64,000 nucleotides of DNA from Candidatus Methylomirabilota bacterium (GTDB lineage Bacteria; Methylomirabilota; Methylomirabilia; Rokubacteriales; DASRDR01): assembly GCA_036001225.1 (NCBI GenBank), contig DASYUM010000308.1, forward strand, positions 540 to 64,539. Reading direction: 5' to 3'. Numbering within the stretch: position 1 is the first letter of the stretch; each line of letters opens with the position of its first letter. Made by a program: the position numbers and the translations under genes. Under the pieces are notes generated by a model. The model worked only from the letters and a program-made list of their open reading frames with translations. It did not search any database and was not told where the DNA came from. This document shows, one piece after another, positions 671-29,291 of the stretch.

Positions 671-1468
671 ATGACGAGCCGCCCGCCGCGCGTCGTCCAC
701 GGGCTGTTCCTGCTCCTCGTGGCGCTCCTGTTCCCCGGCTGCGCGGGTTGGCTGGCGCCCCCGCTCTCGGCCTGGTCGGCCGCGACCCCCCCGGGGGCGT
801 TCGAGGTCGGCCGCGACACGTTCGCGTTCCCCAACCAGATCCGGGCCGAACATCCGGAGCGCGCCGTCGACTTCGGCAACTACTGCATCATCATGGCGCG
901 GGCGGCCAGCCAGTTCTTCCGCTTCGCGCGCTTCGCCCCCGACGCGCCGCCGGTCTCGGACGCCGAGTACACGCGCCTGGCCCGGACGGTGATGAGCATC
1001 GGCGCCTGGGCGGGACCTCGGCCGCCCGAGCGACGGGTGGTAATTCCCGGCTACGCCGACCTCCACGCCCTCTCGCAGGCGCGGGAGTCGGCCGTCAAGG
1101 CGGCGTTCGACTCGAATACGCTCAGCATGTTCCACTGGCGAACGTGGCGGATCGTCCTGCCGCTGCTCCCCGGCCACCAGCGCCGGCTGGCCCGCGAGCT
1201 GGTCGAGGAATTGGCCGGCGGCCGGCCGGTGCCGCTGATGATCACCAACTTCCCCGACCCCGACCTCCTCAATCACGCCGTGCTGGTCTACGACTCCCGG
1301 CCGGGCGCGCGAGCGGTGGAGTTCTTCGCCTACGACCCGAACGATCCGACGACCCCGCTCGGCTTGCACTTCGACCCCGTCACGGGCAGCTTCTGGGTCG
1401 AGCCGCTGCCCTACAGCCCGCCGGGACGCATCCGTGCGTTCCGGCTCTACACCTCGCCCCTCCTCTAG
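671..1468 (+). CDS. Hypothetical lipoprotein (signal peptide + lipobox LFPGC), function unknown
   Basis: 265-aa ORF. The N-terminal hydrophobic stretch ends in L-F-P-G-C-A-G (lipobox-like). No domain recognised by eye. Confidence 0.45.
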   Translation: MTSRPPRVVHGLFLLLVALLFPGCAGWLAPPLSAWSAATPPGAFEVGRDTFAFPNQIRAEHPERAVDFGNYCIIMARAASQFFRFARFAPDAPPVSDAEYTRLARTVMSIGAWAGPRPPERRVVIPGYADLHALSQARESAVKAAFDSNTLSMFHWRTWRIVLPLLPGHQRRLARELVEELAGGRPVPLMITNFPDPDLLNHAVLVYDSRPGARAVEFFAYDPNDPTTPLGLHFDPVTGSFWVEPLPYSPPGRIRAFRLYTSPLL

Positions 1469-1640
1469 TGCGTACGCCGCCTACCGACGGGGCGAGGCCG
1501 GCCGCCCCGCCCCCCGGCCTCGTCGCGCCGGCCGTCGCTCCGCCCCGCACCTCGGGGGTAGTCGGCCGGCCGGCTCCTCGGCACCTTCGGTCCTCGGGTC
1601 CACGTCGTGATATCGCCCGACGTCTGGGAGGACGAGGGCG

Positions 1641-2846
1641 GTGAGCCCGCGCGCGGCTGAGCCGGTGGCGGTGACCGGTGCCGGCGTGGTCAGCCCGATC
1701 GGGCAGGACCTCGACGCGTTCTGGGCGGGCCTGGTCACTGGCGTGTCCGGGATCGCGGAGATCGAGCGCTTCCCGGTGGCCGACCTCCGGGTGACCCGAG
1801 GCGGCGAGGTGAAGAAGCTCCACCGCGTCGCCGAACTCACGCACGATGCGCGCCTGCCGGCCTGCCGGGCCTCGCGCTTCCTGATCCACGCCACCCGGGA
1901 GGCTCTCGCCCACGCCGGGCTGGCCGCCGATCCGCCCGAGCCGGCGCGGTTGGCGGTGGTGATCGGGACGGCGCTCGGCGGCATCGACGACGCCGCCCGC
2001 GCCCTGCGGGGTGACGGCGGGGTGCGGGCGCTGTGCGGCTCGCTCTACGATGGCCCCACCTGGAACCTCGCCCGCTGGCTCGACACCGAAGGGCCGGTGC
2101 TCACGGTGTCCACGGCGTGCGCCTCGGGGGCGACCAGCCTCGGCGTGGCGGCGGAGCTCATCCGGGCGGGGCGGGCCGACGTGGCGGTCGCCGGTGGCGT
2201 CGATGTCCTCTGCCGCTTCGTCCAGCGCGGCTTCAACGTGCTTCGCTCGCTCACCCGGGACCAGGTCCGTCCCTTCGACCGTCGGCGGAGCGGCATCCTC
2301 CTCGGCGAAGGCGCCGGCATCGTGGTGCTGGAACGCGCCGCCTGTGCCGCCGCCCGTGGTCGGGCGCCGCTCGGCTGGCTCCTCGGGCACGCCAGCACGG
2401 CCGACGGCGCCCACATCACGGCCCCCGACCCCGAGGGCCGGGGCCTCGCCCTCGCGATCCGGCAGGCGCTGGGCGAAGCCGGCCTCGGTCCGGACAGCGT
2501 GGAGTTCGTGAGCGCCCACGGGACCGGGACGCCCGCCAACGACCGGGTCGAGACCGACGTCCTCAAGCGGGTCCTCGGCCCGCGTGCCTACGCCGTCCCC
2601 GTCAACTCGATCAAGGCCCACCTGGGTCACACGATGGGAGCGGCGGCGACGCTGGAGGCGATCATGTGTCTGCTGGCCGGCCGCCACGGTCAGCTCCCGC
2701 CCACTCTCAACTACGGCGAGTCGGATCCCCACTGCGACCTCGACTGGGTCCCCAACGAAGCGCGGCGCCACCGGCCGCGGGTGAGCCTGTCCACCTCGCT
2801 CGGCTTCGGGGGCTGCAATGCGGCCCTCGTGCTGGCTGCCGCATGA
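1641..2846 (+). CDS. Beta-ketoacyl-ACP synthase (FabF/KAS II-like, type II FAS/PKS KS), active
   Basis: 401 aa. Active-site Cys in VSTACASG, the two catalytic His in SAHGTGT and IKAHLGHTMGAA, and C-terminal SLGFGGCNAALVL. GTG start with GGAGGA 10 nt upstream. Confidence 0.85.
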   Translation: MSPRAAEPVAVTGAGVVSPIGQDLDAFWAGLVTGVSGIAEIERFPVADLRVTRGGEVKKLHRVAELTHDARLPACRASRFLIHATREALAHAGLAADPPEPARLAVVIGTALGGIDDAARALRGDGGVRALCGSLYDGPTWNLARWLDTEGPVLTVSTACASGATSLGVAAELIRAGRADVAVAGGVDVLCRFVQRGFNVLRSLTRDQVRPFDRRRSGILLGEGAGIVVLERAACAAARGRAPLGWLLGHASTADGAHITAPDPEGRGLALAIRQALGEAGLGPDSVEFVSAHGTGTPANDRVETDVLKRVLGPRAYAVPVNSIKAHLGHTMGAAATLEAIMCLLAGRHGQLPPTLNYGESDPHCDLDWVPNEARRHRPRVSLSTSLGFGGCNAALVLAAA

Positions 2847-3823
2847 ACAGGGTGGCCTCGTCTGCCATCGCCGGCGTCCGGGCCGCCCACGCCCCGGCGC
2901 CGCGGATCGCGGGCGTCGGCCTCCTGACCGGCTGGGGCGAAGGCCCCGCGGCGCTCGCCCGGGCCCGAGGGAACACCCCGGCGTCGTTGCTGGCGGTGCC
3001 GACGCCGGCGCTCGGGGGGGAGCGGTTCCGCCGCGCCACCCGCGAGTGCCTGCTGGCGGCGGCCGCCGTGCGGGCGGCGACGGCCGAGGCGGGCCTCGAC
3101 GAGACGGCGCTGGCCGGTGAGCGGACGGGGATGCTCTACGCCAGCGCGACCGCCTATGCGGCGGCCAACCGCGCCTTCCTCGAGGACGAGGCGTCCACCA
3201 CGCTCCACTTTCCGTACACCGCGCCCAGCGCGGTGCCCGGCGAGGTGACCATCGCCTTCGGCATCCGGGGCCCCTACCTCAACCTGATGGGTGGCGGCCC
3301 GGCGGCGCTCCAGGCCCTCTGGTACGCCGCGCGGTGGCTGGCGGCCGGCCAGGTCGATCGGGTCCTCGTCCTCGCAGTCGAGACCGTGCACGAGGTCTGG
3401 GACCTCTTCGGCCGCGCGCGGCGGCTCTATCGCCGGCCGCTGGTCGAGGGGGCCGCCTGCCTCCTCCTCGAGCCGGGCGATGGGGCGTCGCTGGCCTGGG
3501 CGTCGGCGACGGCGCCCAGGACGGCGCGCCCCCACGCCGATCGTGTCGTGGGCGCAGTCCTCGACGCCGTCCTCGGGGACGGCACGCCGGCGACGGTGGC
3601 CCGGTGTTCGGGGACCCACGGGTTCGGGCGGGCCGAGGCGGCGGCGCTCGCCGGACGGCGGAGGTCGCCGGCCGTGGTGAGCGGGCCGGGCGAGGCGATG
3701 GCGTGCGGGCCACTCTTGGAACTCGCCGAGGCGCGGTCGCGCCGGGCGCCGGGACCCTGGCTGCTCACCGCTGCCTGGCGTAACGATTACAGCGCCCTGT
3801 GCTGGCCCACTCCGATGGCGTGA
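2843..3823 (+). CDS. KS-like protein lacking the catalytic Cys/His (chain-length-factor-like partner of the preceding KS)
   Basis: ATG at 2843 overlaps the upstream TGA (ATGA). 326 aa with a thiolase-fold-like N-terminus but no TACSSG, HGTGT or GH motifs. Confidence 0.6.
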   Translation: MNRVASSAIAGVRAAHAPAPRIAGVGLLTGWGEGPAALARARGNTPASLLAVPTPALGGERFRRATRECLLAAAAVRAATAEAGLDETALAGERTGMLYASATAYAAANRAFLEDEASTTLHFPYTAPSAVPGEVTIAFGIRGPYLNLMGGGPAALQALWYAARWLAAGQVDRVLVLAVETVHEVWDLFGRARRLYRRPLVEGAACLLLEPGDGASLAWASATAPRTARPHADRVVGAVLDAVLGDGTPATVARCSGTHGFGRAEAAALAGRRRSPAVVSGPGEAMACGPLLELAEARSRRAPGPWLLTAAWRNDYSALCWPTPMA

Positions 3824-3837
3824 AGCCGGGAGAGCCG

Positions 3838-4116
3838 ATGGACGAGCGCGCGATCCTCGACGAGTTGCGGGACATCATCGTCAAGCGGCTCAAGTTCGAT
3901 CCCAAGGTGGTCGCGGGCGTGACGTCCGAGACCCCGCTGCCGAAAGGGATCGAGAACTCCCTCGGCCTCGACTCCCTCGACTTCATCGAGCTGTCGATCG
4001 CCCTCGAGGAGCGCTTCGGGGTGGTCGTCCAGGAAGGCGAGCCGGTCGAGGCGCACTTCGCGACGCTGGGCTCGCTGGCGCGCTTCGTGCGCCTGTCCCA
4101 GGGCGGGCCTGCGTGA
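3838..4116 (+). CDS. Acyl carrier protein (discrete ACP)
   Basis: 92 aa with the phosphopantetheine-attachment motif LGLDSLDFIEL. GGGAGA RBS 6 nt upstream of the ATG. Confidence 0.8.
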   Translation: MDERAILDELRDIIVKRLKFDPKVVAGVTSETPLPKGIENSLGLDSLDFIELSIALEERFGVVVQEGEPVEAHFATLGSLARFVRLSQGGPA

Positions 4117-5327
4117 ACGACGTCGTCGTCACCGGCATCGGCGCGGTCAGCCCCTACGGGCTGGGCCGGGCGGCCTTCTGGGCCGGCCTGGCCGCCGGTC
4201 GCTGTACCCTCGCACCCCTGACCCTGTTCCCGACCGACGGCTTCCGCTGCCGAATCGCCGCCGAGGTCCCCCCGACGGTGACCTTGCGCGCCTCCGGGCG
4301 CCGGACGCGCGCCGACCGGCTGGCGATCGCCGCCGCCGACGAAGCCGTCGCCGACGCCGGGCTCCACCGGGCCGATCTCCGGCCGGCGGCGGTGGTGGTC
4401 GGCGGGATCGGTGGCGGCATGCTCGAGGCGGAGGCCTGGTACTGGCGCCTGCAGCGGGAAGGCGTGGACGACCCGCGGCTCCGCGGCGCGCTCCGCAGTG
4501 TCCTGCCATCGGCTCACGCCGAGATGCTGGCCCGTCGCTACGGCACCACCGGCCCCAAGGAAACCGTGGTGCTCGCCTGCAGCTCCGGCGGCGCCGCTCT
4601 CGGGATCGCGGCGGATCTGGTGCGGGCGGGGGAGACGCCGCTCGCCCTCGCCGGGGGTGTGGACGCCCTGACCCGGATCTGCTTCATGGGGTTCAACGCC
4701 CTGAAGCTCCTCGACCTCGAACCCTGTCGCCCCTTCGCCCGCGACCGCCGGGGCATGTCGCTCGGCGAGGGCGCCGGCTTCGTCGTCCTCGAAGAGGCCG
4801 CCCACGCGGCCGCCCGCGGGGCGCGCGCCTACTCGGCGCTGGCCGGCTTCGGGCTCACGACCGACGCCTACCACATGACGGCGCCCCACCCCGACGCCGA
4901 GGGAAGCGTCCGGGCCATGGTCGAGGCGCTGGAACACGCCCGGCTCCCCGCCGGGGCGGTCGGCTACGTCAACGCCCACGGCACCGGCACCGTGCAGAAT
5001 GACCGGGCGGAGGCGCTCGCGATCCGCAAGGTCTTCGGCGCCGAGGCCGTGCTCGTGAGCGCCAACAAGTCGTTGATCGGACACACCATGGCGGCGGCCG
5101 GCGCCCTGGAGGCGATCGCGACCGTTCTCACGCTCGTCCACGACCTGGTGCCCCCGACCGCCAACCTCGCCGAGCCGGATCCCGACATCCCCTTCGACTG
5201 CGTGCCGCTCACCGCGCGGCGGGCCCGGGTGGAGTGCGCCATGTCGAACTCCTTCGGCTTCGGCGGCCAGAACGTGAGCCTGGTGTTCCGGCGGGTGGCC
5301 GATCCTCGGCCGGCTGATGGCGGCTGA
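4113..5327 (+). CDS. Beta-ketoacyl-ACP synthase (second active KS)
   Basis: GTG start overlaps the ACP stop (GTGA). Active-site Cys in VLACSSGG, both His in NAHGTGT and NKSLIGHTMAAAG, and the MSNSFGFGGQNVSLVF C-terminus. Confidence 0.85.
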   Translation: MNDVVVTGIGAVSPYGLGRAAFWAGLAAGRCTLAPLTLFPTDGFRCRIAAEVPPTVTLRASGRRTRADRLAIAAADEAVADAGLHRADLRPAAVVVGGIGGGMLEAEAWYWRLQREGVDDPRLRGALRSVLPSAHAEMLARRYGTTGPKETVVLACSSGGAALGIAADLVRAGETPLALAGGVDALTRICFMGFNALKLLDLEPCRPFARDRRGMSLGEGAGFVVLEEAAHAAARGARAYSALAGFGLTTDAYHMTAPHPDAEGSVRAMVEALEHARLPAGAVGYVNAHGTGTVQNDRAEALAIRKVFGAEAVLVSANKSLIGHTMAAAGALEAIATVLTLVHDLVPPTANLAEPDPDIPFDCVPLTARRARVECAMSNSFGFGGQNVSLVFRRVADPRPADGG

Positions 5328-6552
5328 GGGGCCGCTCCGCGTCCTCATCACGGGCATTGGCAGCGTCAGCGCGCTCGGCGTCGGCGGCGCCGCCACGCTG
5401 ACCGCCGCCCTGGCTCGAGGAGCCTCCGGAATCCGGGCCGTCCGCGGCTTCGATACCGACGGGGCCGGTAGCCACCTGGGCGCGGAGGTCGAGGACCTCA
5501 GCCCGCACCTCGGCCCGGAGGAGGTCCGGCGGCTGGCCCGCGCCAGCCAGCTTGCTGTCATCGCCTGCCGGCTGGCCGTCGCCGACGCCGGTGTCGAGCC
5601 GCGGGGGCTGCCCGGGTTGGGCCTGGTGCTGGGCTCGGCGTACGGCGACTTCCGGTCGTCCGAGGCGTTCGCGCGCGGCTATCTCGGCCGGGGGCCGCTC
5701 GGGCTCTCGCCCGTCCTCTTCCCCAACACCGTGATGAACGCGATGGCGGCCCAGGCCGCGATCGCGGTCGGCGCCCAGGGGCCGATGCTGACGCTGAACC
5801 AGGACGCCATCGCCGGCGAGCTCGCGGTGGCCCGGGCCGCCCAGCTGATCGCGACCGGCCGCGCGCCGGCAGCGCTGGCCGGGGGGGTGGACGAGCTGTG
5901 CCCCGTTCTCTACCACGAGCTGGCTCGCCTCGGGACCAGCTCGCCGCGCGGGCACGGAGCCGAGGGGTGCTGGCCCTTCGATCGCCGCGCCAACGGGACG
6001 GTCCTGGGCGAGGGCGCGACGATCGTGGTCCTGGAGGCGGCCTCCAGCGCCCTGGCGCGCGGGGCCCGCGTCTATGCCGAGTTGGCCGGGGTCGCCACCG
6101 GGAACCTGCCCGCGGCCCCCCACGGCTTCCCGGCCCGCCGCCGCCGCGATCCGGTGGTGATCCGGCGCGCGTTGGCCCGGGCCCGGCTCGCCGCCGCCGA
6201 CGTGGACGCCGTCTACTGCACGGGGACCGGCGATCCCGCCGGAGACCGGTGCGAGCTGGACCTGATGGGCGCGGTATTCGAGGGGGCGCCCCGGGCGCGG
6301 CCGCTGCTGAGTGCCCTGACCCCGCTTGCCGGCGAACACGGCGGGCTGGGCGCGCTTCGCGTCGCCGCCGCCGCGACCGCGGTGGCCGGGGGCCCGCTGC
6401 CCGGCCTGCCGGACCTGGAGAGACCGGTGCGGCCGGACTGGGCCTTCGCGACCGGCGCGCCCCGCTCGTTGCCCGGCGCGGGGGCGATCATGGTCCACGG
6501 GCTGGCGCGAGGCGGTGGCCACGCCGCGCTCGTCTTGACGCGAGCCGCCTGA
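5317..6552 (+). CDS. KS-like/CLF-like protein with Gln in place of the active-site Cys (LNQDAIAG); catalytic His residues absent
   Basis: 411 aa. Its start overlaps the KS stop. It has thiolase-fold similarity, but Cys is replaced (NQD), HGTGT is replaced by YCTGTGD, and there is no GH motif. This is the KSbeta/CLF signature. Confidence 0.65.
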   Translation: MAAEGPLRVLITGIGSVSALGVGGAATLTAALARGASGIRAVRGFDTDGAGSHLGAEVEDLSPHLGPEEVRRLARASQLAVIACRLAVADAGVEPRGLPGLGLVLGSAYGDFRSSEAFARGYLGRGPLGLSPVLFPNTVMNAMAAQAAIAVGAQGPMLTLNQDAIAGELAVARAAQLIATGRAPAALAGGVDELCPVLYHELARLGTSSPRGHGAEGCWPFDRRANGTVLGEGATIVVLEAASSALARGARVYAELAGVATGNLPAAPHGFPARRRRDPVVIRRALARARLAAADVDAVYCTGTGDPAGDRCELDLMGAVFEGAPRARPLLSALTPLAGEHGGLGALRVAAAATAVAGGPLPGLPDLERPVRPDWAFATGAPRSLPGAGAIMVHGLARGGGHAALVLTRAA

Positions 6553-7307
6553 TGCCGCGCCTCGTCGCCGTCGTGCCGGTGTTCAACGAGGCGGCCACCG
6601 TCCCCGGCGTCGTGCGGCGGCTGGGCAAGCTCTGTCCGGTGATCGTGGTGGACGACGCGTCGACCGACGGCAGCGGCGCCGGCGCGGCCGCCGCGGGCGC
6701 CCGCGTCGTCCGCCTGCCGGCCCGCGGCGGCAAGGGGGCCGCCCTCCGGCTGGGCTTCGCGGAGGCGCTTCGGGCCGGTGCCGACGGGGTGGCGACCCTC
6801 GACGGCGACGGCCAGCACGACCCGGCCGAATTGCCACGCCTGATCGCCGCCGGCCGGCGCGTCCCCGAGGCGCTCGTCGTCGGCGACCGGCTCGGCGGAC
6901 TCGGCGACCGCATCCCGCGTGCGCGCCTCGCCGCCATCCGGATCGCCGACCGTTGGCTCGGCTGGCTCACGGGGATGCCGCTGCGCGACACCCAGTGCGG
7001 CTTTCGGCTCTACCCGGCAGTCTTTCTGCGGGCGGCTCGCCTGCGCGAAGAAGGCTTCGTGCTCGAGAGCGAAGCCCTCGTCGAAGCCGCCCGCCGCGGC
7101 TTCCCGCTGGTGTCGGTGCCGCTGCGGGCGATCTATCCGCCGGGGCGGGCCAGCCGCTTCCGCGGGCTCGCCGACGGCCTGCGGATCGGCCGCTATCTCG
7201 CCCGCGAGGTCGTGCGGGAGGCGGCGCGGCGGATCGCCGTCGAGCCGCGCGGCCGCCGCGTCCGGGTGGCCTGGCCACTGCCCGATGCCAGAGGCGGCGG
7301 TGGCTGA
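6552..7307 (+). CDS. Family 2 glycosyltransferase (DPM1/polyprenol-phosphate sugar transferase-like)
   Basis: ATG at 6552 overlaps the upstream TGA by 1 nt. Motifs VVPVFNEA...VVDDASTDGS...DGDGQHDP (DxD) are typical of GT2_2 / Dpm1-like enzymes. Confidence 0.75.
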   Translation: MPRLVAVVPVFNEAATVPGVVRRLGKLCPVIVVDDASTDGSGAGAAAAGARVVRLPARGGKGAALRLGFAEALRAGADGVATLDGDGQHDPAELPRLIAAGRRVPEALVVGDRLGGLGDRIPRARLAAIRIADRWLGWLTGMPLRDTQCGFRLYPAVFLRAARLREEGFVLESEALVEAARRGFPLVSVPLRAIYPPGRASRFRGLADGLRIGRYLAREVVREAARRIAVEPRGRRVRVAWPLPDARGGGG

Positions 7308-8583
7308 TCGCATCCGCGCCCGTTACGACGTCGCCATCGTCGGGGGCGGCCCCGCCGGCTCCACCGCGGCGACCTTGCTGGCCCGCGCCGGTCTCGACGT
7401 CGCCTGCTTCGAGCGGGAGCGCTTCCCCCGCTTCCACATCGGCGAGTCGCTCCTCCCGGCCTCCGTCCCGCTCTTCGACCGGCTGGGGCTGACGTCGCGG
7501 CTGGAGGGGGCCGGGTTTCTCCGGAAGTACGGCGCCGCCTTCATCGACGAGGCGGACGGCCGGCAGGTCTTCTTCAATTTCCGGCGAGGCCCGCACTGGG
7601 CCGACCACGCCTACAACGTCCCCCGGGCCGATTTCGACCGCCTGCTCCTCGATCATGCCGCCAAGGAAGGGGCGGCCGTCGTCGAGGGCGCCGAGGTCCA
7701 GTCGCTGGCGATCGAGCGCGACCGCGTGCGGCTGGAAGTGGCGACCGACGACGGCGGGCGTTATCCGGTAGAGGCGGCGTTCCTGGTGGATGCCAGCGGT
7801 CGCGACGCGGTGCTCGCCTCGCGGCTTGGCCGTCGGGAGCCCATGCCCAGTCTGGGCAAGGTCGCGCTCTTCGCCCATTACCGGGGCGCGGAGCGCTGGC
7901 TCGAGCGCCGGGAGGGCTACATCCGGATCTACCTCTTCGACCACGGCTGGTTCTGGTGGATCCCCTTCGCCGGCGACCTCACCAGCGTCGGCTGTGTCCT
8001 CCACCAGCGCGTGGTCAAGGCGCGCCAGGTCCGCCTGGAGCAGCTCTTCGAGGAGATGGTGGCCGCCTGCCCGAGCGTGGCCGCCGGTCTGGACGGTGCC
8101 ACCCGGACCACCGAGGTCTTGAGCGCGGCCAATTTCTCCTACCGGGGGACGCCGGCGGTCGGCGACCGCTTCGTCGCCCTCGGGGACGCGGTCACGTTCG
8201 TGGACCCCATCTTCTCGACCGGCGTCTACATCGCCATGCAATCGGCCGAGCTGGCCTGCCCGGCCATCGTGACCGGGTTCCGGCAGGGAGCGTTCCGCGC
8301 CTCGGCCTTCGACGGATATCGGCGCCGCATCGAGCGTGGCACCGGGCTCTTGTTCCGCTTCATCGACCAGTACTATGACCCTGCGTTCCTGGACGTCTTT
8401 CTCTCTCCGAGCCCACCGCAGATGTTGCGCGACGCCGTGGTGACGGTCCTGGTCGGGGGCGCCTTCCTCCACTATCCGCTCTGGCTGCGGGCCCGTCTGG
8501 CGGCGGTCTTCCTCGGGGCCGCCCTCCGGCGGCGGTCGCGCGCGCGGCAGGGATTGGCGGTCGAGTCGCGCCTGACGTGGTGA
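7285..8583 (+). CDS. FAD-dependent halogenase (tryptophan-halogenase family / geranylgeranyl-reductase fold)
   Basis: N-terminal Rossmann motif VAIVGGGPAGS. The flavin-halogenase signature WxWxIP is present as GWFWWIPF. The length (about 430 aa) fits. It overlaps the GT gene by 23 nt. Confidence 0.7.
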   Translation: MPEAAVADRIRARYDVAIVGGGPAGSTAATLLARAGLDVACFERERFPRFHIGESLLPASVPLFDRLGLTSRLEGAGFLRKYGAAFIDEADGRQVFFNFRRGPHWADHAYNVPRADFDRLLLDHAAKEGAAVVEGAEVQSLAIERDRVRLEVATDDGGRYPVEAAFLVDASGRDAVLASRLGRREPMPSLGKVALFAHYRGAERWLERREGYIRIYLFDHGWFWWIPFAGDLTSVGCVLHQRVVKARQVRLEQLFEEMVAACPSVAAGLDGATRTTEVLSAANFSYRGTPAVGDRFVALGDAVTFVDPIFSTGVYIAMQSAELACPAIVTGFRQGAFRASAFDGYRRRIERGTGLLFRFIDQYYDPAFLDVFLSPSPPQMLRDAVVTVLVGGAFLHYPLWLRARLAAVFLGAALRRRSRARQGLAVESRLTW

Positions 8584-9770
8584 GCGACCTGCGCCGGCTC
8601 TGGCCTCGCGGCTACGGCTTCGCCATCGCCGGCATCGCGGTGGGGATCGCCGGACTGGTCGCCCTCGGCGCTCTCGCCGAGCGGATCAGCCGCTTCATCG
8701 AGGGTGGCCATCGCTTCGTCCTCGGACAGATCTCGGTGGCCGGCGCCGGCATCGGCAGCGGCGCCGGCTTCACGGCCGGCGGCCTCCTCCCGCGTCGCAC
8801 GGTCGAGGCGATCGCCCGCGTGCCGGGCGTGCAGGTCGTCCAGCCCCAGGTCATGGTCCCGGTGGACCCGCGCAGCTCTCAGCTCTTCACGGTGAACCAG
8901 GAGCTGATCCTCGGCCTCGACCTGTCGGTCCCCATCCCCAACCGCAACTACCCCACGCTGCCCGTCGCCCGCGGGCGCTTCCTCGGCGCCGGCGATCGCG
9001 GCCGGGCGGTGGTCGGCGCCGACTTCGCCGCGGCGCGGGGATTGCGGATCGGGGACCGGGTCCGCCTCGGAGCCCGCGAGTTCGAGGTCGTCGGGATCCT
9101 CGAGCGCCTCCTCACCGCGCCCGATCGCTTCGCCTTCGTCCCGCTGGAGGACGCGCGCGACCTCTGGCTGGCCCTCGACCCTACCCTCCGGGTGCTGTTC
9201 GCGCCCGGCGGGCCGGTGGCGCGCGACGACCTCAACACCGGCGCCGCGGTGGGCTGGGCGCCCGGCGTGGATCCCGACGCGCTGGCCGCGCGGATCGCGC
9301 GCGAGGTGCCGGGGGTGAACGTGGTGCCTCCCGGCGAGGTGGCCCGCCAGCTCGCGTCCTCCACGACCTTCTTCACCTGGCTCATGGCCGGCGTGGGCGG
9401 GATCGGGCTCCTGATCGGCGGCCTCTCGCTCTCCAACACGGTCGCCGCCTCGACCTTCGAGCGGATTCGGGACTTCGGCATCAAGCAGGCTCTGGGCGCG
9501 ACCGATGTCCAGCTCTTCGGCGAGGTGCTCCGGGAGAGCCTGGTCGTGAGCCTCGCCGGCGGCGTGGTGGGGGCGCTCCTCGCTCTCGCCGCCGGGAGTG
9601 CGGTGGACGCCCGGGCCGCCCACGCCGGCCAGCAGCTCTTCTTCTTCTCCGGCCGCCTCTTCGGCTTCACGTTCGCGTTGGCTGCCGCCCTCGGCGCCAT
9701 CGCCGGCGCCTACGCCACCGCGCGCATCCTGCGGGTGCCGCCGGCGGAGGCCATCCGCCGGGGAGCTTAG
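8577..9770 (+). CDS. ABC transporter permease, FtsX/MacB/LolCE family
   Basis: 397 aa. One N-terminal TM helix, a large periplasmic domain, then 3 C-terminal TM helices (FtsX-like). GTG start overlaps the halogenase stop. Confidence 0.75.
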   Translation: MVSDLRRLWPRGYGFAIAGIAVGIAGLVALGALAERISRFIEGGHRFVLGQISVAGAGIGSGAGFTAGGLLPRRTVEAIARVPGVQVVQPQVMVPVDPRSSQLFTVNQELILGLDLSVPIPNRNYPTLPVARGRFLGAGDRGRAVVGADFAAARGLRIGDRVRLGAREFEVVGILERLLTAPDRFAFVPLEDARDLWLALDPTLRVLFAPGGPVARDDLNTGAAVGWAPGVDPDALAARIAREVPGVNVVPPGEVARQLASSTTFFTWLMAGVGGIGLLIGGLSLSNTVAASTFERIRDFGIKQALGATDVQLFGEVLRESLVVSLAGGVVGALLALAAGSAVDARAAHAGQQLFFFSGRLFGFTFALAAALGAIAGAYATARILRVPPAEAIRRGA

Positions 9771-9773
9771 ATC

Positions 9774-11270
9774 ATGGCGATGGACCACGACGTCCTGGTC
9801 GTCGGCGGAGGGAACGCCGCGCTCTGCGCCGCCCTGGCCGCCCGCGAGCGGGGGGCGCGCGTGCTCGTCCTGGAAAAGGCGCCCGAGGCCGAGCGGGGCG
9901 GGAACTCGCTCTTCACGGCCGGGGGCTTTCGCTTTCCCCACCGCGGCCTCGAGGATTTGCGGCGCGACGTGCTGGTCGATCTGACCCCGGCCGAGGCGGA
10001 CGCCGTCGAGGTGCCACCCTACCCGGAGGAGACGTTCTACGACGACCTCCTGCGGCTCACCGAGCACTGCGCGAATCCGGACCTGACCGATCTGTTGGTG
10101 CGGCGGGCCCGGCCGACCGTGGTGTGGATGCGCGGCCAGGGCGTGCGCTGGATTCTGATGCTCAACCGCCAGTCCTTCAAGGTGGGCGACCGCCACCACT
10201 TCTGGGGCGGCCTCCACGTCGAGGCGGTCGGCGGCGGCCAGGGCCTCGTCCAGTCGCTGTACGACCGGGCGGAGCGGCTCGGCGTGGCGGTGCTGTATGG
10301 CGTCGGGGCCCGGCGCCTTCTCCAGGACCGGCGGGGCGCCGTCACCGGCGTCGTCACCCGCGGGCCGGAGGGCTTCGAGGAGATCGCGGCCGGCGCGGTG
10401 GTCCTCGGCTGCGGGGGATTCGAGGCCAACCCCGAGTGGCGAGTCCGCTACCTCGGCCCCGACTGGGAGCTGGCGCGCGTGCGGGGAACGCGGCACAACA
10501 CCGGCGACGGGATCCGCATGGCGCTCGAGATCGGCGCCCAGCCCTACGGCCACTGGTCCTCCTGCCACGCCGTCCAGTGGGACGTCAACGCCCCCGAGTT
10601 CGGCGACCGCAAGGTCCTCGACCTCTTCCAGAAGCATTCCTACCCGCTGGGTCTCATCGTCAATGTCCGCGGCGAGCGGTTCGTGGACGAGGGCGCCGAC
10701 CTCCGAAACTACACCTACGCCAAGTACGGCCGCGAGATCCTGAAGCAACCGCTTCGCACCGCCTGGCAGCTCTTCGATCAGAAGGTCGTCCCCCTCCTCC
10801 GCGAGGAGTATCGGATTCGCGAAGTGACCAAGGTCGAGGCCGACACGCTGGAGGAGTTGGCGCGGAAGTGCGAGATCGACGCGGCCGGGCTCGGGCGGAC
10901 GGTTCACGCCTTCAACGCCGCCGTCCAGGACACGCCCGCCTTCAACCCGGCCGTCCTCGATGGCAAAGGCACCCGCGGGATCACGCCGCCCAAGTCCAAC
11001 TGGGCCCAGCGGCTCGACCGGCCGCCCTTCGTCGCCTTCGGCGTGACGTGCGGCATCACCTTCACCTTCGGCGGGCTCCGGGTCAACGGCGAGGCCGCCG
11101 TGCTCGACACCGAGGATCGCCCGATTCCCGGCCTCTACGCCGCCGGCGAGCTGGTGGGCGGGCTCTTCTACCACAACTACCCCGGCGGGGCGGGACTCAT
11201 GGCGGGGGCGACGTTCGGGAAGCTCGCCGGGGAGCAGGCGGCGGCATTCGTGGCGACCGCCAGTCGCTGA
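9774..11270 (+). CDS. FAD-binding flavoprotein of the TcuA / fumarate-reductase-flavoprotein-like family (putative C=C reductase or desaturase)
   Basis: VLVVGGGNAALCAAL dinucleotide motif. It has TcuA-like length and conserved blocks (GGFEANPEW, C-terminal GLYAAGE). Confidence 0.75.
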   Translation: MAMDHDVLVVGGGNAALCAALAARERGARVLVLEKAPEAERGGNSLFTAGGFRFPHRGLEDLRRDVLVDLTPAEADAVEVPPYPEETFYDDLLRLTEHCANPDLTDLLVRRARPTVVWMRGQGVRWILMLNRQSFKVGDRHHFWGGLHVEAVGGGQGLVQSLYDRAERLGVAVLYGVGARRLLQDRRGAVTGVVTRGPEGFEEIAAGAVVLGCGGFEANPEWRVRYLGPDWELARVRGTRHNTGDGIRMALEIGAQPYGHWSSCHAVQWDVNAPEFGDRKVLDLFQKHSYPLGLIVNVRGERFVDEGADLRNYTYAKYGREILKQPLRTAWQLFDQKVVPLLREEYRIREVTKVEADTLEELARKCEIDAAGLGRTVHAFNAAVQDTPAFNPAVLDGKGTRGITPPKSNWAQRLDRPPFVAFGVTCGITFTFGGLRVNGEAAVLDTEDRPIPGLYAAGELVGGLFYHNYPGGAGLMAGATFGKLAGEQAAAFVATASR

Positions 11271-11369
11271 GAGCCCGTGAAGGAATCGCCCCTTCCGTGT
11301 GAGCCGCGAGATACCCGGAGGGGGGGTCCGGGGGAGGAGCGCGCCGCTCCCCCCCGGCCCGACTGAGCG

Positions 11370-12041
11370 GTGCTGCGCGCCGTCGGGCTCCGCAAGACGT
11401 TTCGGGGTCCCGACGGCCGCGTCATCGAGGTGCTGCGGGGCTGCGACCTCACCCTGGCGCCCGGCGAGCACGTCGCGGTCGTCGGGCGCTCCGGCTCCGG
11501 CAAGTCCACGCTGCTCAATCTGCTCGGCTGTCTGGACCGCGCCGACGGCGGCGAGCTGTGGTTTGGCGACGCCGCCCTCACCGGCGCGGGCCGGCGAGCG
11601 CTGGCCCACTTCCGCGGCCATCAGCTCGGCTTCGTCTTCCAGGCCTTCAACCTGATCCCGTCGCTCACGGCCTGGGAGAACGTGCTCCTCGCCGCCCGCT
11701 ACGTCGGCCGGGACCGGACCCCGGCGACGCGGGCGGCGACCGCGCTCTTCGAGCGGCTGGGGATCGCCGAGCGCAAGGGCCACTACCCGCCGGCGCTCTC
11801 TGGCGGCGAGCAGCAGCGCGTGGCCTTTTGCCGGGCGGTGCTGAACGATCCCGCGGTGCTCCTCGCCGACGAGCCGACCGGCAACCTCGATGACGACAAC
11901 GCCCGCGTGATCCTGGACGAGCTGCGGTCGCGCGCGCGGACGGGTCGGGCGGCGGTCCTGCTGGTGACCCACAACGCCGACCTTGCCCGCGCCGCCGACC
12001 GGGTGCTCTACCTGGAGGACGGCCGGCTCGTCGCCGCCTGA
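11370..12041 (+). CDS. ABC transporter ATP-binding protein (LolD/MacB-type)
   Basis: Walker A GRSGSGKST, signature LSGGEQQRVA, Walker B LLADEPTGNLD, and an H-loop. Confidence 0.85.
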   Translation: MLRAVGLRKTFRGPDGRVIEVLRGCDLTLAPGEHVAVVGRSGSGKSTLLNLLGCLDRADGGELWFGDAALTGAGRRALAHFRGHQLGFVFQAFNLIPSLTAWENVLLAARYVGRDRTPATRAATALFERLGIAERKGHYPPALSGGEQQRVAFCRAVLNDPAVLLADEPTGNLDDDNARVILDELRSRARTGRAAVLLVTHNADLARAADRVLYLEDGRLVAA

Positions 12042-14365: not shown

Positions 14366-14569
14366 CAGACGCGCGGCGTGTGGCTTCACCGTGCGCGCGG
14401 TTAGTCCGACCAGAACGCTAGGAGCGCCCCCAGCGAACGGACCGGCGCCGTCCTGAAAATCTCGGCCCGGCCGCGTGTCGGGAAGTGGACGGGCGGCCGT
14501 TTCGGCTGGTCTTCCCGCAGCTCTCTCTGGTACCCTGCCAGGGTCTGTCCGGAGGGAGACGCAAGAGGG

Positions 14570-15823
14570 ATGGGCGGAGTCCAGGGGACGCTGGTGGTCG
14601 CCAACATGCCGGGCGCGCTGACCGTGGTGGCGGGTCTCCCGCTGGTCGCGCGCGCGGTGCTCGAGCTGCGCGCGGCGGGCTACGCCGCGGTCACCGTCTT
14701 CGCCGGTCCCCAGGCCCGGCGGGTGGCGGCGCTGCTCGAGCCACGCTGCCCGGACGTGGCCGGCCTCGGCTCGCCGGACGAGGCGGCCGCCCTCGGCTGG
14801 CCGGAGCTCGTCCTCGTGGTGGCGGGCGACGTCCTCTTCGACCCCGCCGCGCTGGCGCCGCTCCTCGCCGCCGCCACGCCGGGCGGGGTCCACTTCGGGC
14901 AGGTGCCCGGAGCGCCGGGACCCGAGGTGCCGGCCGCGGTGTGCCCGGGGTCGGCCATCCCGCGCCTGCTGGCCGAGGCGAGCCGTGGTGGCGGGCTTCG
15001 CGTCGAGGGCCTTCGCCGCGTCGGCGGCGCGGCCGCGGGCGGGGTCCCGCTCACCGACGGCCTCCTCGTGCCCGCCGACCGGGCCCCGGCGCGGCGCGTC
15101 CTCGAGACGGCGCTTCTCGATCATCTGGCCCGGCGGACCAGCGCCAAGGACAGCTTCCTCGCCGCGCTCGTCGACCGCCGCCTGTCCCGGCCGCTGACGC
15201 GTCTCCTCCTCGGCTCGCCGGTGACGCCGTCTCAGATCACGGTGGTCAGTATCGCGCTCGGGCTCGCCGGGGCGGTGGGCCTGGCGACCATCTCCTACGC
15301 GGGCCGCCTCGCCGGCGTCGGCGCGTTGATCGCGTCGATCGTCCTCGACTGCGTGGACGGCGAGCTGGCGCGGGCCCGCTTCCAGCAGAGTGCGGCCGGC
15401 GCCCGGCTCGACGTGCTCGGCGATTACGTGGTCCACCTCGCGGCGTTCCTCGGTCTCGCCATCGGCCTCGCCCGGCAGGGGCTGCCGCCGGGAGGCGTCT
15501 GGGCCGCGGCCGGCCTCGTCGCCGGCGTCGGGGCCGCCATGGCCACGATGCACGCGATCTTCGTCCGGCCGGCGCTCCGCGGGGGGGGCGACCTCCACTG
15601 GAGCGGCGAGCCAGCCGGGTTGCCCGACACGCCCCTGACCGCGATCGTCGAGAAGCTCGCCAGCCGCGACTACACGTATCTACTCCTCGTCCTGGCCCTG
15701 CTCGGACACCTCGAGTGGTTCCTCTACGCGGCGGCGGTCGGCTCGTGGGTCTTCGTCGCCGGCGTGCTGGGCTATCGAGGCTATCAGCGGCTGGCCCTGC
15801 GCCGACCGGTGGTCTCGCAGTGA
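14570..15823 (+). CDS. Bifunctional-type protein: N-terminal MobA-like nucleotidyltransferase-like domain fused to a CDP-alcohol phosphatidyltransferase (IPCT/DIPPS-like architecture)
   Basis: The C-terminal half carries the CDP-OH_P_transf motif D-C-V-D-G-E-L-A-R...G-A-R-L-D-V-L-G-D plus multiple TM helices. The N-terminal 180 aa resemble a degenerate NTP-transferase fold. Confidence 0.6.
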   Translation: MGGVQGTLVVANMPGALTVVAGLPLVARAVLELRAAGYAAVTVFAGPQARRVAALLEPRCPDVAGLGSPDEAAALGWPELVLVVAGDVLFDPAALAPLLAAATPGGVHFGQVPGAPGPEVPAAVCPGSAIPRLLAEASRGGGLRVEGLRRVGGAAAGGVPLTDGLLVPADRAPARRVLETALLDHLARRTSAKDSFLAALVDRRLSRPLTRLLLGSPVTPSQITVVSIALGLAGAVGLATISYAGRLAGVGALIASIVLDCVDGELARARFQQSAAGARLDVLGDYVVHLAAFLGLAIGLARQGLPPGGVWAAAGLVAGVGAAMATMHAIFVRPALRGGGDLHWSGEPAGLPDTPLTAIVEKLASRDYTYLLLVLALLGHLEWFLYAAAVGSWVFVAGVLGYRGYQRLALRRPVVSQ

Positions 15824-16833
15824 AGCGACTCCGCCGGCGCGCGGTGGAGCTGGGCTGCCTCGGCCTCGGGCTCGGGCTGCTGCTCGCGACCGTGTGGCAG
15901 ATCGGGCTGGCCGGCCTGGCCCGCGACCTCCGCCTCATCGGCTGGGGCCTGGCCGTGATCCTGCTCGTGGAGAGCCTCAACGTCCTGTTCAACACCTGGG
16001 GCTGGGGCCTGGCCTTCCCGGCCGGCGAGCGCACGGTCAGCTCGCGACGGCTCCTGGCCGCCCGCCTGGCCGGCGACGGCGTGAACTACCTGACGCCCTC
16101 GGCGACGGTCGGGGGCGAGCTGCTCCGCGTCCGGCTGCTGGGCGGCGCGGTGCCACTCGGACTCCGCTGGGCCTCGGTGAGCGTGGCCAAGCTGGGGCAG
16201 ACCGTCGCCCAGGCGCTCTTCATCCTGCTCGGGCTGGCGATCGTGCTGCCGCACCTGACCGACGTGACCCCGTGGGTGGCCTGGCTCGGCGGGGGCAGCG
16301 CAGCGCTGCTGGTCGCGCTCGGCTTCGCGCGGCTGCTGGAGCGCGGTGTGTGGGCGACGGCCGAGGCCGGCGCCCGGCGGCTCGGCCTCGCGGCGCGAAT
16401 GCCGGTCCGGTGGGCCGCGCCCGGCCGCGATCTCGACGCCGCGCTCGGCCGACTCGGCAACCCGCGGCTCTTCGGCTCGCTCGCCTGCTTCGTCGCCGGC
16501 TGGGCGGTGGGTGCGGCGGAGATCTACCTGATCCTGGCCTGGCTGGGGACGCCGGTGGCGTGGCAGACGGCGCTCGCGCTGGAGACCGGGTCGGTGCTCA
16601 TTGATGGTATCCTCTTCTTCGTGCCCGGGAAGATCGGCACCCAGGAGGGCGGGAAGGTCATGCTGTTCATCGCCTTCGGGTTGAATCCGGCGCGCGGTCT
16701 CACCGTCGGCGTCGTGCGGCGGATCCGCGAGCTGACCTACGCCGGGCTCGGCCTGGCCGCGCTCGGCGCGCTGGCCCTGCGCCCCGTGGCCTCGGTGGCG
16801 TCCCCCCTCGTCCCTCAATCGGAGTCTTCATGA
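15820..16833 (+). CDS. Integral membrane protein with a lysylphosphatidylglycerol-synthase-TM / flippase-like (UPF0104) domain
   Basis: GTG overlaps the upstream TGA (GTGA). About 8 TM helices. The pattern resembles LPG_synthase_TM (Arg/Gly-rich loops, FFVPGKIGTQEG). Confidence 0.5.
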   Translation: MKRLRRRAVELGCLGLGLGLLLATVWQIGLAGLARDLRLIGWGLAVILLVESLNVLFNTWGWGLAFPAGERTVSSRRLLAARLAGDGVNYLTPSATVGGELLRVRLLGGAVPLGLRWASVSVAKLGQTVAQALFILLGLAIVLPHLTDVTPWVAWLGGGSAALLVALGFARLLERGVWATAEAGARRLGLAARMPVRWAAPGRDLDAALGRLGNPRLFGSLACFVAGWAVGAAEIYLILAWLGTPVAWQTALALETGSVLIDGILFFVPGKIGTQEGGKVMLFIAFGLNPARGLTVGVVRRIRELTYAGLGLAALGALALRPVASVASPLVPQSESS

Positions 16834-18314
16834 CCCACGCCGCCGACCCGGCCCTGCGCACGCTGTTCCTCCATCCGCCCTCGTTCGAGGGGTTCGACGG
16901 CGGGGCTGGCGCCCGTTACCAGGCGCGCCGCGAGATCCGCTCCTTCTGGTACCCGACGTGGCTCGCGCAGCCGGCCGCGCTGGTGCCCGGCAGCCGGCTG
17001 GTGGACGCGCCGCCCGACGGGCTGACCCTGGATCAGGTCGCCCCGTTGGCCAAGGAGTACGACCTCGCCGTCCTCCACACGAGCACGCCCTCGTTCGGGA
17101 ACGACGCCCGGGTCGCCGAGCGGCTCAAGGCCGAGAATCCGCGCCTGGTCGTCGGCATGGTCGGCGCCCACGTGGGTGTCCTCCCCCAGCAATCGCTCAA
17201 GGCAGCGCCCGCGGTGGACTGGGTGAGCGTCGGCGAGTTCGACTACGCGTGCACCGAGGTCGCGGCCGGCCGCCCGCTCAAGGACGTCTGCGGGATCGCC
17301 TACCGGGACGGGGAGCGGATCCGGTTCACCCCGCCGCGGCCGCAGGTCGAGGACATGGACGCGCTGCCGTTCGTGGTGGACGTCTACCAGCGCGACCTCA
17401 CCATCGAGAACTACTTCATCGGCTACCTCCTCCACCCCTACGTTTCGCTCTACACCGGCCGGGGCTGCCGCTCGAAGTGCACCTTCTGCCTGTGGCCTCA
17501 GACCCTCGGCGGTCACCGCTATCGGGTCCGCAGTCCGGAGAGCGTCGAGGCCGAGATGGCGCGGGCCAAGGCCCACTTCCCGCAGGTGAAGGAGTTCTTC
17601 TTCGACGACGACACGTTTACCGACGACCTGCCTCGGGCGGAAGAGATCGCCCGCCGCCTGGGCCGGCTCGGACTGACCTGGTCGTGCAACGCCAAGGCCA
17701 ACGTGCCGCGCAAGACGCTGGAGGTCCTTCGCGACAACGGCCTCCGGCTCCTCCTGGTGGGCTACGAGTCGGGCAACCAGCAGATCCTGAACAACATCAA
17801 GAAGGGCATCCGGCTCGACATCGCCCGCCGCTTCACGCGAGACGCCAAGGAGTTGGGGATCACCATCCACGGCACGTTCATCCTCGGCCTCCCCGGTGAG
17901 ACGTCGGAGACCATCCGGGAGACGGTCCGCTATGCGTGCGAGATCGAGCCGGATACGATCCAGGTCTCGCTGGCGGCGCCGTATCCGGGGACCGAGCTGT
18001 ACCGTCAGGCCCAGGAGCAGGGGTGGCTGGCCATCCAGTCGGGTGAACTGGTGGACACCCACGGCGTGCAGGTCGCCGCCCTCAACTATCCCGGCCTCTC
18101 CCAGACCGAGATCTTTCACTCGGTCGAGGAGTTCTATCGCCGCTTCTACTTCCGCCCGCGGAAAATCGTCGCCATGGTCGGTGGCATGCTGCGCGATCCG
18201 GCCGTCATGCGCCGGCGACTGCGGGAAGGCGTCGAGTTCTTCCGCTTCATGCGCGAGCGCAAGAAGCCGACGGCGAAGGTCGAGCCGGCCGCCGGCGTCA
18301 GCACGCCGGCCTGA
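16830..18314 (+). CDS. B12-binding-domain radical SAM protein, HpnJ-like
   Basis: ATGA overlap with the upstream gene. N-terminal LFLHPPSFEGFDGGAGARYQARREIRSFWYPTWLAQPAAL is characteristic of HpnJ-family enzymes. The rSAM cluster is CRSKCTFC (CxxxCxxC). Length is 494 aa. Confidence 0.75.
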   Translation: MTHAADPALRTLFLHPPSFEGFDGGAGARYQARREIRSFWYPTWLAQPAALVPGSRLVDAPPDGLTLDQVAPLAKEYDLAVLHTSTPSFGNDARVAERLKAENPRLVVGMVGAHVGVLPQQSLKAAPAVDWVSVGEFDYACTEVAAGRPLKDVCGIAYRDGERIRFTPPRPQVEDMDALPFVVDVYQRDLTIENYFIGYLLHPYVSLYTGRGCRSKCTFCLWPQTLGGHRYRVRSPESVEAEMARAKAHFPQVKEFFFDDDTFTDDLPRAEEIARRLGRLGLTWSCNAKANVPRKTLEVLRDNGLRLLLVGYESGNQQILNNIKKGIRLDIARRFTRDAKELGITIHGTFILGLPGETSETIRETVRYACEIEPDTIQVSLAAPYPGTELYRQAQEQGWLAIQSGELVDTHGVQVAALNYPGLSQTEIFHSVEEFYRRFYFRPRKIVAMVGGMLRDPAVMRRRLREGVEFFRFMRERKKPTAKVEPAAGVSTPA

Positions 18315-29226: not shown

Positions 29227-29291
29227 CCTCGGCCCGCCTCCTCCCTGCGTCCTAGGGCTGCTCGGTTCTCGGCCACGGCTAGGGCAATGCC

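Follow-up and report, generated by a model that had tools for sequence, protein, structure and literature searches.

The 64,000-nucleotide stretch of DNA analysed here and called the window below (contig DASYUM010000308.1 of assembly GCA_036001225.1, from a Candidatus Methylomirabilota bacterium of the Rokubacteriales) carries an operon in which two active FabF-type ketosynthases (KSs), KS1 and KS2, are each followed directly by the gene of a catalytically dead KS homologue, KSb1 and KSb2, respectively. The loss of the Cys-His-His triad in both homologues is conserved, family-wide and far beyond chance. From the evidence set out below we infer physical heterodimers in which KSb1 and KSb2 are probably the non-catalytic partners of the KS encoded next to each of them, comparable to the chain-length factors (CLFs) of polyketide synthases (PKSs). 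The genes concerned are the following (aa, amino acids):

1641–2846, + strand: KS1, active FabF-type ketosynthase of 401 aa, with the Pfam domains PF00109 and PF02801
2843–3823, + strand: KSb1, compact catalytically dead KS-like protein of 326 aa, with PF00109 only (E 3e-9)
3838–4116, + strand: dedicated acyl carrier protein (ACP) of 92 aa, with PF00550 and the motif LGLDSLD
4113–5327, + strand: KS2, active FabF-type ketosynthase of 404 aa, with PF00109 and PF02801
5317–6552, + strand: KSb2, full-length catalytically dead FabF-like protein of 411 aa, with PF00109 and PF02801

The nucleophilic Cys, the two His residues, the Lys and the GFGG gate motif are all found in KS1 and in KS2, their motifs being TACASG, SAHGTGT and HLGHTMG in KS1 and LACSSG, NAHGTGT and LIGHTMA in KS2. 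The proteins of the window are 100% identical to entries that NCBI assigns to metagenome-assembled genomes of Methylomirabilota (Rokubacteria). A scan of one genome per species yielded 71 loci, nearly all of them labelled Rokubacteria, Rokuibacteriota or Methylomirabilota, and the triad was found to be invariant in KS1 (62/62 related loci) as well as in KS2 (62/62). The top PDB match of KS1 was amxFabF2 (9S5H_B, 278 bits), and KS2 matched best the Thermus FabF (299 bits) and amxFabF2 (279 bits).

The catalytic positions of KSb2 were mapped by three concordant independent alignments (phmmer to the Thermus FabF, MAFFT together with KS1 and KS2, and the family profile to FabFs). The sequence-only reading of this DNA had reported that ORF 5317–6552 has 'NQD' in place of the active-site Cys and had taken this as the Gln-for-Cys hallmark of CLFs. 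As a description of the motif the first statement was right, with correct coordinates and strings, but residue by residue it is Ala that replaces the Cys: 'TLNQDAIAG' aligned with 'T..TACATG', which puts A164, directly after 'NQD', at the catalytic position. Across 113 homologues this position was occupied by Gly (50), Asp (50), Thr (9), Ala (2) or Asn (2). The second statement could not be upheld in view of the three alignments and the family counts, since Gln162 lies two residues upstream of the Cys position and is not conserved (Q52/E51/D7 in the 113 homologues). The first His is replaced by T302 (Thr or Ser in the family) and the second by E340 (Glu in 62 and Asp in 32 of the 113), which is followed by the invariant H341. 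The AlphaFold2 model of KSb2 showed a full-length FabF fold with a predicted local distance difference test (pLDDT) score of 82.7 and template modelling (TM) scores of 0.85–0.87 to many FabFs, its confidence being low exactly at the helix-loop-helix (residues 112–137).

For ORF 2843–3823, the claim that the 326-aa product lacks the Cys-His-His triad was borne out, and this holds for the whole family. The Cys position corresponds to G151/G152 and was Gly or Ala, never Cys, in 116 homologues, and the position of the second His is E284, with Glu in 115/116. The copy in the window has a His (H259, in 'GTHGFG') near the first-His position; since this was kept in only 13/116 homologues, the KSb1 family as a whole is without the triad. 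Recognizable KS sequence is limited to residues ~50–190, with the actinorhodin (act) KS-alpha as the top PDB match (E 1.7e-4). In the AlphaFold2 model (pLDDT 85, predicted TM score 0.87) the N-terminal thiolase half is complete and the C-terminal one is trimmed, with strands kept as far as residue 321. The top Foldseek matches of this model were the CLFs AntE (6SMO/6SMP) and Iga12 (6KXD-F chain B), with E values of 6e-15 to 2e-13 and TM ~0.7. KSb1 was also considered as a half-KS of the ApeC type, and this was ruled out because no PF13723 match was found and ApeC was missing both from the profile matches (E ≤ 10) and from the Foldseek top 50.

KSb1 is best described as a compact partner like Iga12 (ishigamide, PDB 6KXD-F) and AntE (anthraquinone, PDB 6SMO/6SMP), which are likewise reduced in size (~350–370 aa compared with 326 aa), lack the triad and are encoded beside a KS. 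The identity to these proteins is only 15–20%, however, and they were not detected by sequence search; moreover, the Iga system has its own ketoreductase (KR) and dehydratase (DH) and the Ant system has cyclases, none of which occurs in the Rokubacteria operon. When 1.84 billion representative proteins were searched with the profile of KSb1, only 35 matched at E ≤ 1e-30 and 155 at E ≤ 1e-10, and these low numbers indicate a narrow, lineage-restricted family.

The possibility that the dead copies are decaying duplicates, that is, pseudogenes or annotation artefacts without function, has a practically negligible likelihood. The lost catalytic residues, the shortening of KSb1 and the poor conservation of its C-terminal half (0.48–0.63) would fit such decay, but the reading frames are intact, the coding signal of the type based on G+C at third codon positions (GC3) is present and both folds are predicted with confidence. 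Hundreds of metagenomic proteins belong to each of the two dead families. The mean top-residue frequency was 0.72–0.73 in the dead families versus 0.74–0.75 in the active KSs, and 61 and 73 invariant columns were counted in the dead-family alignments of 29 and 30 sequences, which reach down to 52–58% identity. In KSb1 conservation peaks at residues 101–150 (0.92–0.95), including 'LHFPYTxPSxVPGEVTI', and this segment aligns with the helix-loop-helix/tunnel region, where conservation in KS1 and KS2 is at its lowest (0.47–0.67). The operon was found in syntenic order in about 70 Rokubacteria/Methylomirabilota species genomes, the near-invariant order being lipoprotein, [LpxL/PatA-like acyltransferase], KS1, KSb1, ACP, KS2, KSb2, family-2 glycosyltransferase (GT2), [halogenase], FtsX permease and ATP-binding cassette (ABC) ATPase. 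Presence was counted only over loci with enough flanking sequence: KS1 and KS2 were each present in 65/65, KSb2 in 62/63 and the ACP in 64/67, and the order KS1-KSb1-ACP-KS2-KSb2 was kept in 62–65 of 63–65 loci. This conservation, together with the synteny, effectively refutes pseudogene decay of KSb1 and KSb2.

[quoted passage not shown] An origin from FabH or thiolases was ruled out, the matches to ACP_syn_III and Thiolase_N being marginal and under the gathering score. Thus, neither of the two findings that the sequence-only reading had named as fatal to itself was made: the triad is not intact in the dead copies and they do not group with FabH or thiolases. A grouping with the actinorhodin-type CLF was not supported for either of them. 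The profile of the KSb2 family scored highest on the FabFs of Thermus (217 bits) and Synechocystis (202 bits) and on chains C (199 bits) and B (192 bits) of 9S5H, and lower on the PKS-type targets act KS-alpha (165 bits), Iga11 (138 bits) and act CLF (133 bits). In a neighbour-joining tree, whose only references were five PDB sequences (three FabFs, amxFabF2 and amxFabFmut), KS1 and KS2 were sister paralogues beside FabF and amxFabF2, while amxFabFmut, KSb2 and KSb1 stood on separate deep branches. By these scores and the tree placement, the sequences of the dead copies are those of degenerate relatives of FabF and not of the actinomycete CLF clade.

KSb2 is best described as a partner of the amxFabFmut type. 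The structures 9S5H and 9S5I represent the amxFabF2/amxFabFmut heterodimer of Brocadia fulgida, which belongs to a putative ladderane cluster; each of the two proteins is inactive alone, and when co-expressed they co-purify and decarboxylate malonyl-ACP to acetoacetyl-ACP (bioRxiv 10.64898/2026.05.19.726425). Phe135 and Val139 on the helix-loop-helix of amxFabFmut line the tunnel, and their mutation shifts the chain-length preference (bioRxiv 10.64898/2026.05.19.726425). As in the operon studied here, the anammox pair is made up of an active FabF-type KS and a full-length partner of FabF fold without Cys-His-His, the counterpart of KSb2, and the system includes a dedicated ACP but lacks FabH. 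KSb2 and amxFabFmut are ~30% identical (148–199 bits) and have in common the F-P-N-T-V tunnel motif and the Glu at the second-His position. Within the KSb2 family F, P, T and V of this motif are invariant (N31/S8/H5 at the remaining position in 44 loci), as are F135 and V139. On the other hand, the anammox dead gene lies upstream of its KS and there is one pair, whereas here the dead genes lie downstream and there are two; the Cys position is Val or Thr in amxFabFmut and Ala, Gly or Asp in KSb2; and the amxFabZ, the phytoene-desaturase-like enzyme and the B12 radical S-adenosylmethionine (SAM) enzyme of the ladderane cluster are all missing from the Rokubacteria operon. In the neighbour-joining tree KSb2 was not a specific sister of amxFabFmut.

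Glu, sometimes Asp, takes the place of the second catalytic His in four dead-KS families, namely KSb1 (E284), KSb2 (E340), amxFabFmut ('TGEC' in 9S5H chain C) and the Planctomycete-like short KS P0324 ('LGEA'). This recurrence could reflect convergence or a common functional requirement.

The assignment of partners was examined through the helix-loop-helix, which is 34–35 residues long in KS1 and KSb1 (in KS1 ~7 residues shorter than in FabF) and has the canonical length of 41 residues in KS2 and KSb2, as in FabFs and the amx pair. The agreement of loop lengths within adjacent genes favours the pairs KS1:KSb1 and KS2:KSb2. The chains of the 9S5H heterodimer were the best solved-structure match of KS1 and near-best for KS2 and KSb2. 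Furthermore, natural KS-dead KS fusions exist: in P0377 (796 aa) and P0385 (812 aa) the N-terminal half carries Cys/His/His and the C-terminal half is dead, and both dead halves match the KSb1 profile (E ~3e-11 to 4e-11). A pairing that departs from the gene order, be it a KS1:KS2 heterodimer, the association of both dead copies with one KS or dimers of the dead copies with the housekeeping FabF, is very unlikely. It would accord with the single ACP, with the fact that KS1 and KS2 are mutual closest paralogues (42–45% identity) and with the BLAST scores of KSb2, which is no closer to KS2 (62 bits) than to KS1 (89 bits). However, the order KS1-KSb1-ACP-KS2-KSb2 is fixed in 60+ genomes, the short helix-loop-helix occurs only in KS1 and KSb1 and the canonical one only in KS2 and KSb2, and a Planctomycete-like contig carries a minimal triad on its own, in which a KS is accompanied by a short dead KS and a protein of 81 aa. 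A crude test of charge complementarity between partners, a linear net-charge count over the helix-loop-helix and helix 196–206, missed the published asymmetry already in the amxFabF2/amxFabFmut control.

The fusion P0377 is encoded in an unrelated cluster (L073, 1–15700; metagenome contig ERZ27241916 k141_440295), which also contains a second KS with a PF13723 protein, four B12 radical SAM proteins, a SPASM radical SAM protein, two methyltransferases, LolA, a GT2 and an amino-oxidase/phytoene-desaturase-like flavoprotein, a make-up reminiscent of proposed ladderane clusters.

The start and stop codons of the pairs do overlap, as the sequence-only reading had noticed: the KSb1 ATG at 2843 lies within ATGA and forms a 4-nt overlap with the KS1 stop, and the KSb2 ATG at 5317 precedes the KS2 stop TGA (5325–5327), giving an overlap of 11 nt. 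The 4-nt overlap of KS1/KSb1 is possible in 54/71 loci, and KS2 and KSb2 overlap in 36/45. The conclusion of that reading that these junctions imply stoichiometric co-translation was not supported, because ACP/KS2 (GTGA) and KSb2/GT2 (TGATG) are joined in the same way and GT2/halogenase and halogenase/permease also overlap in the window. Overlaps at nearly every junction are weak evidence for pair-specific co-translation; such overlap characterises this operon as a whole, as it does compact high-G+C operons in general (the G+C content of the window is 71–76%). What remains of the proposal of non-catalytic KS partners is thus its core, dead KAS-II homologues lying directly downstream of active KSs and resembling AntE/Iga12 and amxFabFmut, without the Gln and overlap arguments.

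Several observations weigh against the heterodimer interpretation. KSb1 and KSb2 do not have the classic CLF Gln. The overlaps are operon-wide (ACP/KS2 in 48/64 and KSb2/GT2 in 38/53 loci). In the predicted model, the preference of KSb1 for CLF folds is real but modest, as ordinary KSs were matched at E ~1e-12 to 1e-11 with a similar TM of ~0.7. The operon has no KR, DH or enoyl reductase (ER) genes for the steps after condensation. Finally, the amxFabFmut of Scalindua has been crystallised as a homodimer (bioRxiv 10.64898/2026.05.19.726425), and a dead KS is thus not bound to be an obligate member of a heterodimer.

These homodimer crystals would also suit an alternative in which the dead homologues act alone, as homodimers or monomers, in acyl-ACP binding and gate-keeping, in malonyl-ACP decarboxylation or in a thioester or cyclising chemistry via E284/E340 and His341. 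The near-invariant Glu of KSb1 (115/116) and the Glu/Asp of KSb2 (94/113) with the invariant His341 could mark a new catalytic centre. In addition, the best NCBIfam neighbours of KS1 include the cispentacin protein AmcF and the nearest models of the ACP are the cispentacin ACP AmcB and PRK09184 (all under cutoff), the cispentacin system being KS/CLF-like with non-canonical chemistry. Nevertheless, we regard a stand-alone role as unlikely: amxFabF2 and amxFabFmut are active only together, the conservation of KSb1 peaks in the interface/tunnel segment and not round a pocket, and the loop lengths of adjacent pairs and the fusions likewise speak for partnership with a KS. The heterodimer of each dead protein with its adjacent KS is therefore preferred.

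Three further systems were compared with the operon. The aryl-polyene (APE) clusters also have, within one cluster similar to a fatty acid synthase, two condensing systems, one of which includes a shortened dead partner (ApeO:ApeC and ApeR), and their accessory set parallels that of the operon with the lipoprotein ApeA, the lysophospholipid/LpxL-type acyltransferase ApeD, the glycosyltransferase ApeJ and dedicated outer-membrane export (PMC8253772, PMC8358021). However, ApeC keeps one thiolase half while KSb1 also keeps a trimmed second half, the score between ApeO and KS1 is low (151 bits), ApeH (starter activation), ApeQ (KR), ApeI/P (DH) and ApeK (thioesterase) have no counterpart here, and APE export relies on resistance-nodulation-division and LolA/LolB-like proteins rather than on a MacB-type ABC transporter. 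In the actinorhodin KS-alpha/KS-beta system (PDB 1TQY) a KS gene likewise overlaps with the next gene, which encodes an inactive KS homologue, and there this homologue, the CLF, forms the heterodimer tunnel, but the traits of that type, namely Gln at the Cys position, cyclases, aromatases and a C-9 ketoreductase, are absent here, and the KSb2 profile prefers the Thermus FabF to act CLF, as given above. The rhizobial cluster acpXL-fabZXL-fabF2XL-fabF1XL-lpxXL resembles the operon through its dedicated ACP, its pair of FabF paralogues and an acyltransferase of the LpxL family; it puts a very-long-chain acyl group on lipid A, and in Bradyrhizobium this chain carries a hopanoid (PMC5613085). It has its own FabZ, and sometimes Adh/FabG, which the Rokubacteria operon does not, and KS1 and KS2 scored only 264–294 bits on NF005076, far under its cutoff of 629. 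No literature on this Rokubacteria operon was found; a general paper on soil biosynthetic gene clusters mentions ladderane-type calls and nothing specific.

The KS and ACP genes form part of a tightly packed run of + strand genes (671–12041), the other members of which are as follows:

671–1468, + strand: predicted lipoprotein of 265 aa with a signal peptide and the lipobox LFPGC; first gene of the conserved operon
6552–7307, + strand: GT2 of 251 aa, with PF00535; absent from the list of the sequence-only reading
7285–8583, + strand: flavin-dependent halogenase-like enzyme of 432 aa, with PF04820
8577–9770, + strand: MacB/FtsX-type ABC permease, with PF12704 and PF02687
9774–11270, + strand: TcuA-like flavin adenine dinucleotide (FAD) flavoprotein, NCBIfam NF006130 (590 bits, cutoff 369)
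11370–12041, + strand: LolD/MacB/DevA-type ABC ATPase, with PF00005; last conserved operon gene

The GT2 was present in 56/58 loci, the FtsX permease in 50/50, the ABC ATPase in 48/49, the LpxL-like acyltransferase in 40/64, the halogenase in 39/53 and TcuA in 3/49. The lipoprotein gave no Pfam or NCBIfam match at all, and a homologue of it, or a DUF8321/8322 protein at the same position, was found in 56/61 related loci. The halogenase-like enzyme has GxGxxG at residue 20 and WxWxIP (WFWWIP) at 222, the two motifs of flavin-dependent halogenases; 'GWFWWIP' does not vary in 42 loci, and the Lys of 'LRKYGAAF' is conserved. Its best NCBIfam model is the chloramphenicol halogenase CmlS (222 bits, under cutoff). 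A halogenated lipid product is possible. The GT2 resembles polyprenyl-phosphate sugar synthases, the nearest NCBIfam models being PpgS, AglJ and ArnC, all under cutoff, and the ABC ATPase matched the LolD and MacB models, also under cutoff. The gene of the TcuA-like flavoprotein, which separates the two exporter genes (permease and ATPase), is an insertion confined to the clade of the window. In the 40 loci that have the LpxL/PatA-family acyltransferase it lies between the lipoprotein gene and KS1 (e.g., 7852–8763 in L001); it is absent from the window, where its usual place is taken by the intergenic region 1469–1640. In one locus (L002) this gene sits after the ACP.

Genes for KR, DH, ER, a thioesterase, a cyclase or a starter-activating ligase were not found in the operon or its conserved flanks. 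The flanks of the close locus L001 and of the distant loci L021 and L049 were also free of KR, DH and ER, with unrelated housekeeping genes upstream, and a short-chain dehydrogenase/reductase gene in the window (29283–30047) lies 17 kb off among transport genes. Reduction would have to be borrowed from the housekeeping type II fatty acid synthase, or else the product would have to retain beta-keto groups. The control of polyene length suggested by the sequence-only reading finds no basis in an operon without ketoreductase and dehydratase.

Downstream of the operon, at a distance of 4.5 kb, a B12-binding radical SAM gene (16605–18314, + strand) had prompted the consideration of a ladderane-type cluster. 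This was ruled out, as the NCBIfam cutoff identifies the gene as HpnJ (777 bits on TIGR03471, cutoff 577.6), while the protein reached only 83 bits on the ladderane-type model TIGR04072. HpnJ is an enzyme of the hopanoid side chain (cyclitol ether). Its gene was found 0.3–3 kb downstream of the ABC ATPase in at least 30 Rokubacteria loci, the proteins being 67–86% identical (e.g., L041 18379–19809 and L068 17879–19318); consequently, the KS operon is syntenic with a hopanoid gene. In a distant Rokubacteria clade an ArnT/PMT_2-type GT-C glycosyltransferase of ~600 aa stands between the ABC ATPase and HpnJ (L041 16591–18375, L049 18017–20185, L021 18465–20312), with 3 nt between its gene and hpnJ in L041. 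Considered along with the ArnC-like GT2, this enzyme suggests that a lipid receives a sugar by way of a polyprenyl-phosphate carrier. In the window its place is taken by a hybrid histidine kinase and a CDP-alcohol phosphatidyltransferase. The latter (14405–15823, + strand, 472 aa) has its CDP-alcohol phosphatidyltransferase domain at residues 274–387 only, with no assignment for the N-terminal ~250 aa, and in five related loci a homologue of 47–52% identity comes after the ABC ATPase.

Taken together, the halogenase, the GT2, the LpxL-like acyltransferase, the lipoprotein, the MacB-type exporter and the neighbouring hpnJ mean that the operon is read as an envelope-lipid pathway and not as a polyene pathway, and it is to such a pathway that its gene content points. 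In the mechanism that we propose, KS1 and KS2 would share one dedicated ACP as the condensing enzymes of a type II system similar to fatty-acid or polyketide synthesis, and each would pair with the dead homologue encoded directly after it. The dead subunit would take the place of the second protomer in the usual KS homodimer, and its helix-loop-helix would form part of the acyl tunnel of the active subunit and so set the accepted chain lengths, as CLFs do; this role in tunnel shaping and chain-length control is deduced from the comparisons above. The dead subunit may also be required, as in the anammox amxFabF heterodimer, for the decarboxylation of malonyl-ACP and for priming. Since the two pairs differ, with a compact partner and short loops in one and a full-length partner and loops of canonical length in the other, they probably represent two chain-length or priming regimes. 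The acyl product would probably be halogenated in most lineages. The LpxL/PatA-like acyltransferase, which the window lacks, and the GT2 would then transfer it to a membrane anchor, and the MacB-type ABC transporter and its lipoprotein would presumably carry out the export.

A more specific version of this proposal is offered only tentatively. According to it, the two KS pairs would belong to a phylum-wide envelope-lipid locus of 11–13 genes in Rokubacteria, which besides the lipoprotein, the LpxL-like acyltransferase, the ACP, the ArnC-like GT2, the halogenase and the MacB-type exporter also takes in the ArnT-like GT-C and HpnJ, making a possibly halogenated acyl or beta-ketoacyl chain without reductive enzymes of its own for a glycolipid- or hopanoid-linked outer-membrane anchor. 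The dead partners would be CLFs derived from FabF independently of the actinomycete CLFs, with Glu for the second His as in amxFabFmut, and this Glu may play a part in the mechanism, for example in decarboxylative priming.

KS/CLF heterodimers were long taken as a hallmark of aromatic PKSs, until aryl polyenes, ishigamide and the 2026 anammox FabF pair extended them to fatty-acid-like systems. The dead-partner design is therefore already known from these four cases and the operon adds no new principle. What is new is that two structurally different dead partners stand side by side on one ACP, with no dedicated reductive enzymes and with a halogenase, and that this arrangement is conserved across an uncultivated phylum-level group from soil and linked to hopanoid and envelope genes. 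The dead FabF copies allow predictions on substrate length through the F-P-N-T-V of KSb2, the 'LHFPYTxPSxVPGEVTI' of KSb1 and the conserved Glu, and the operon points to an as yet undescribed membrane lipid of Rokubacteria.

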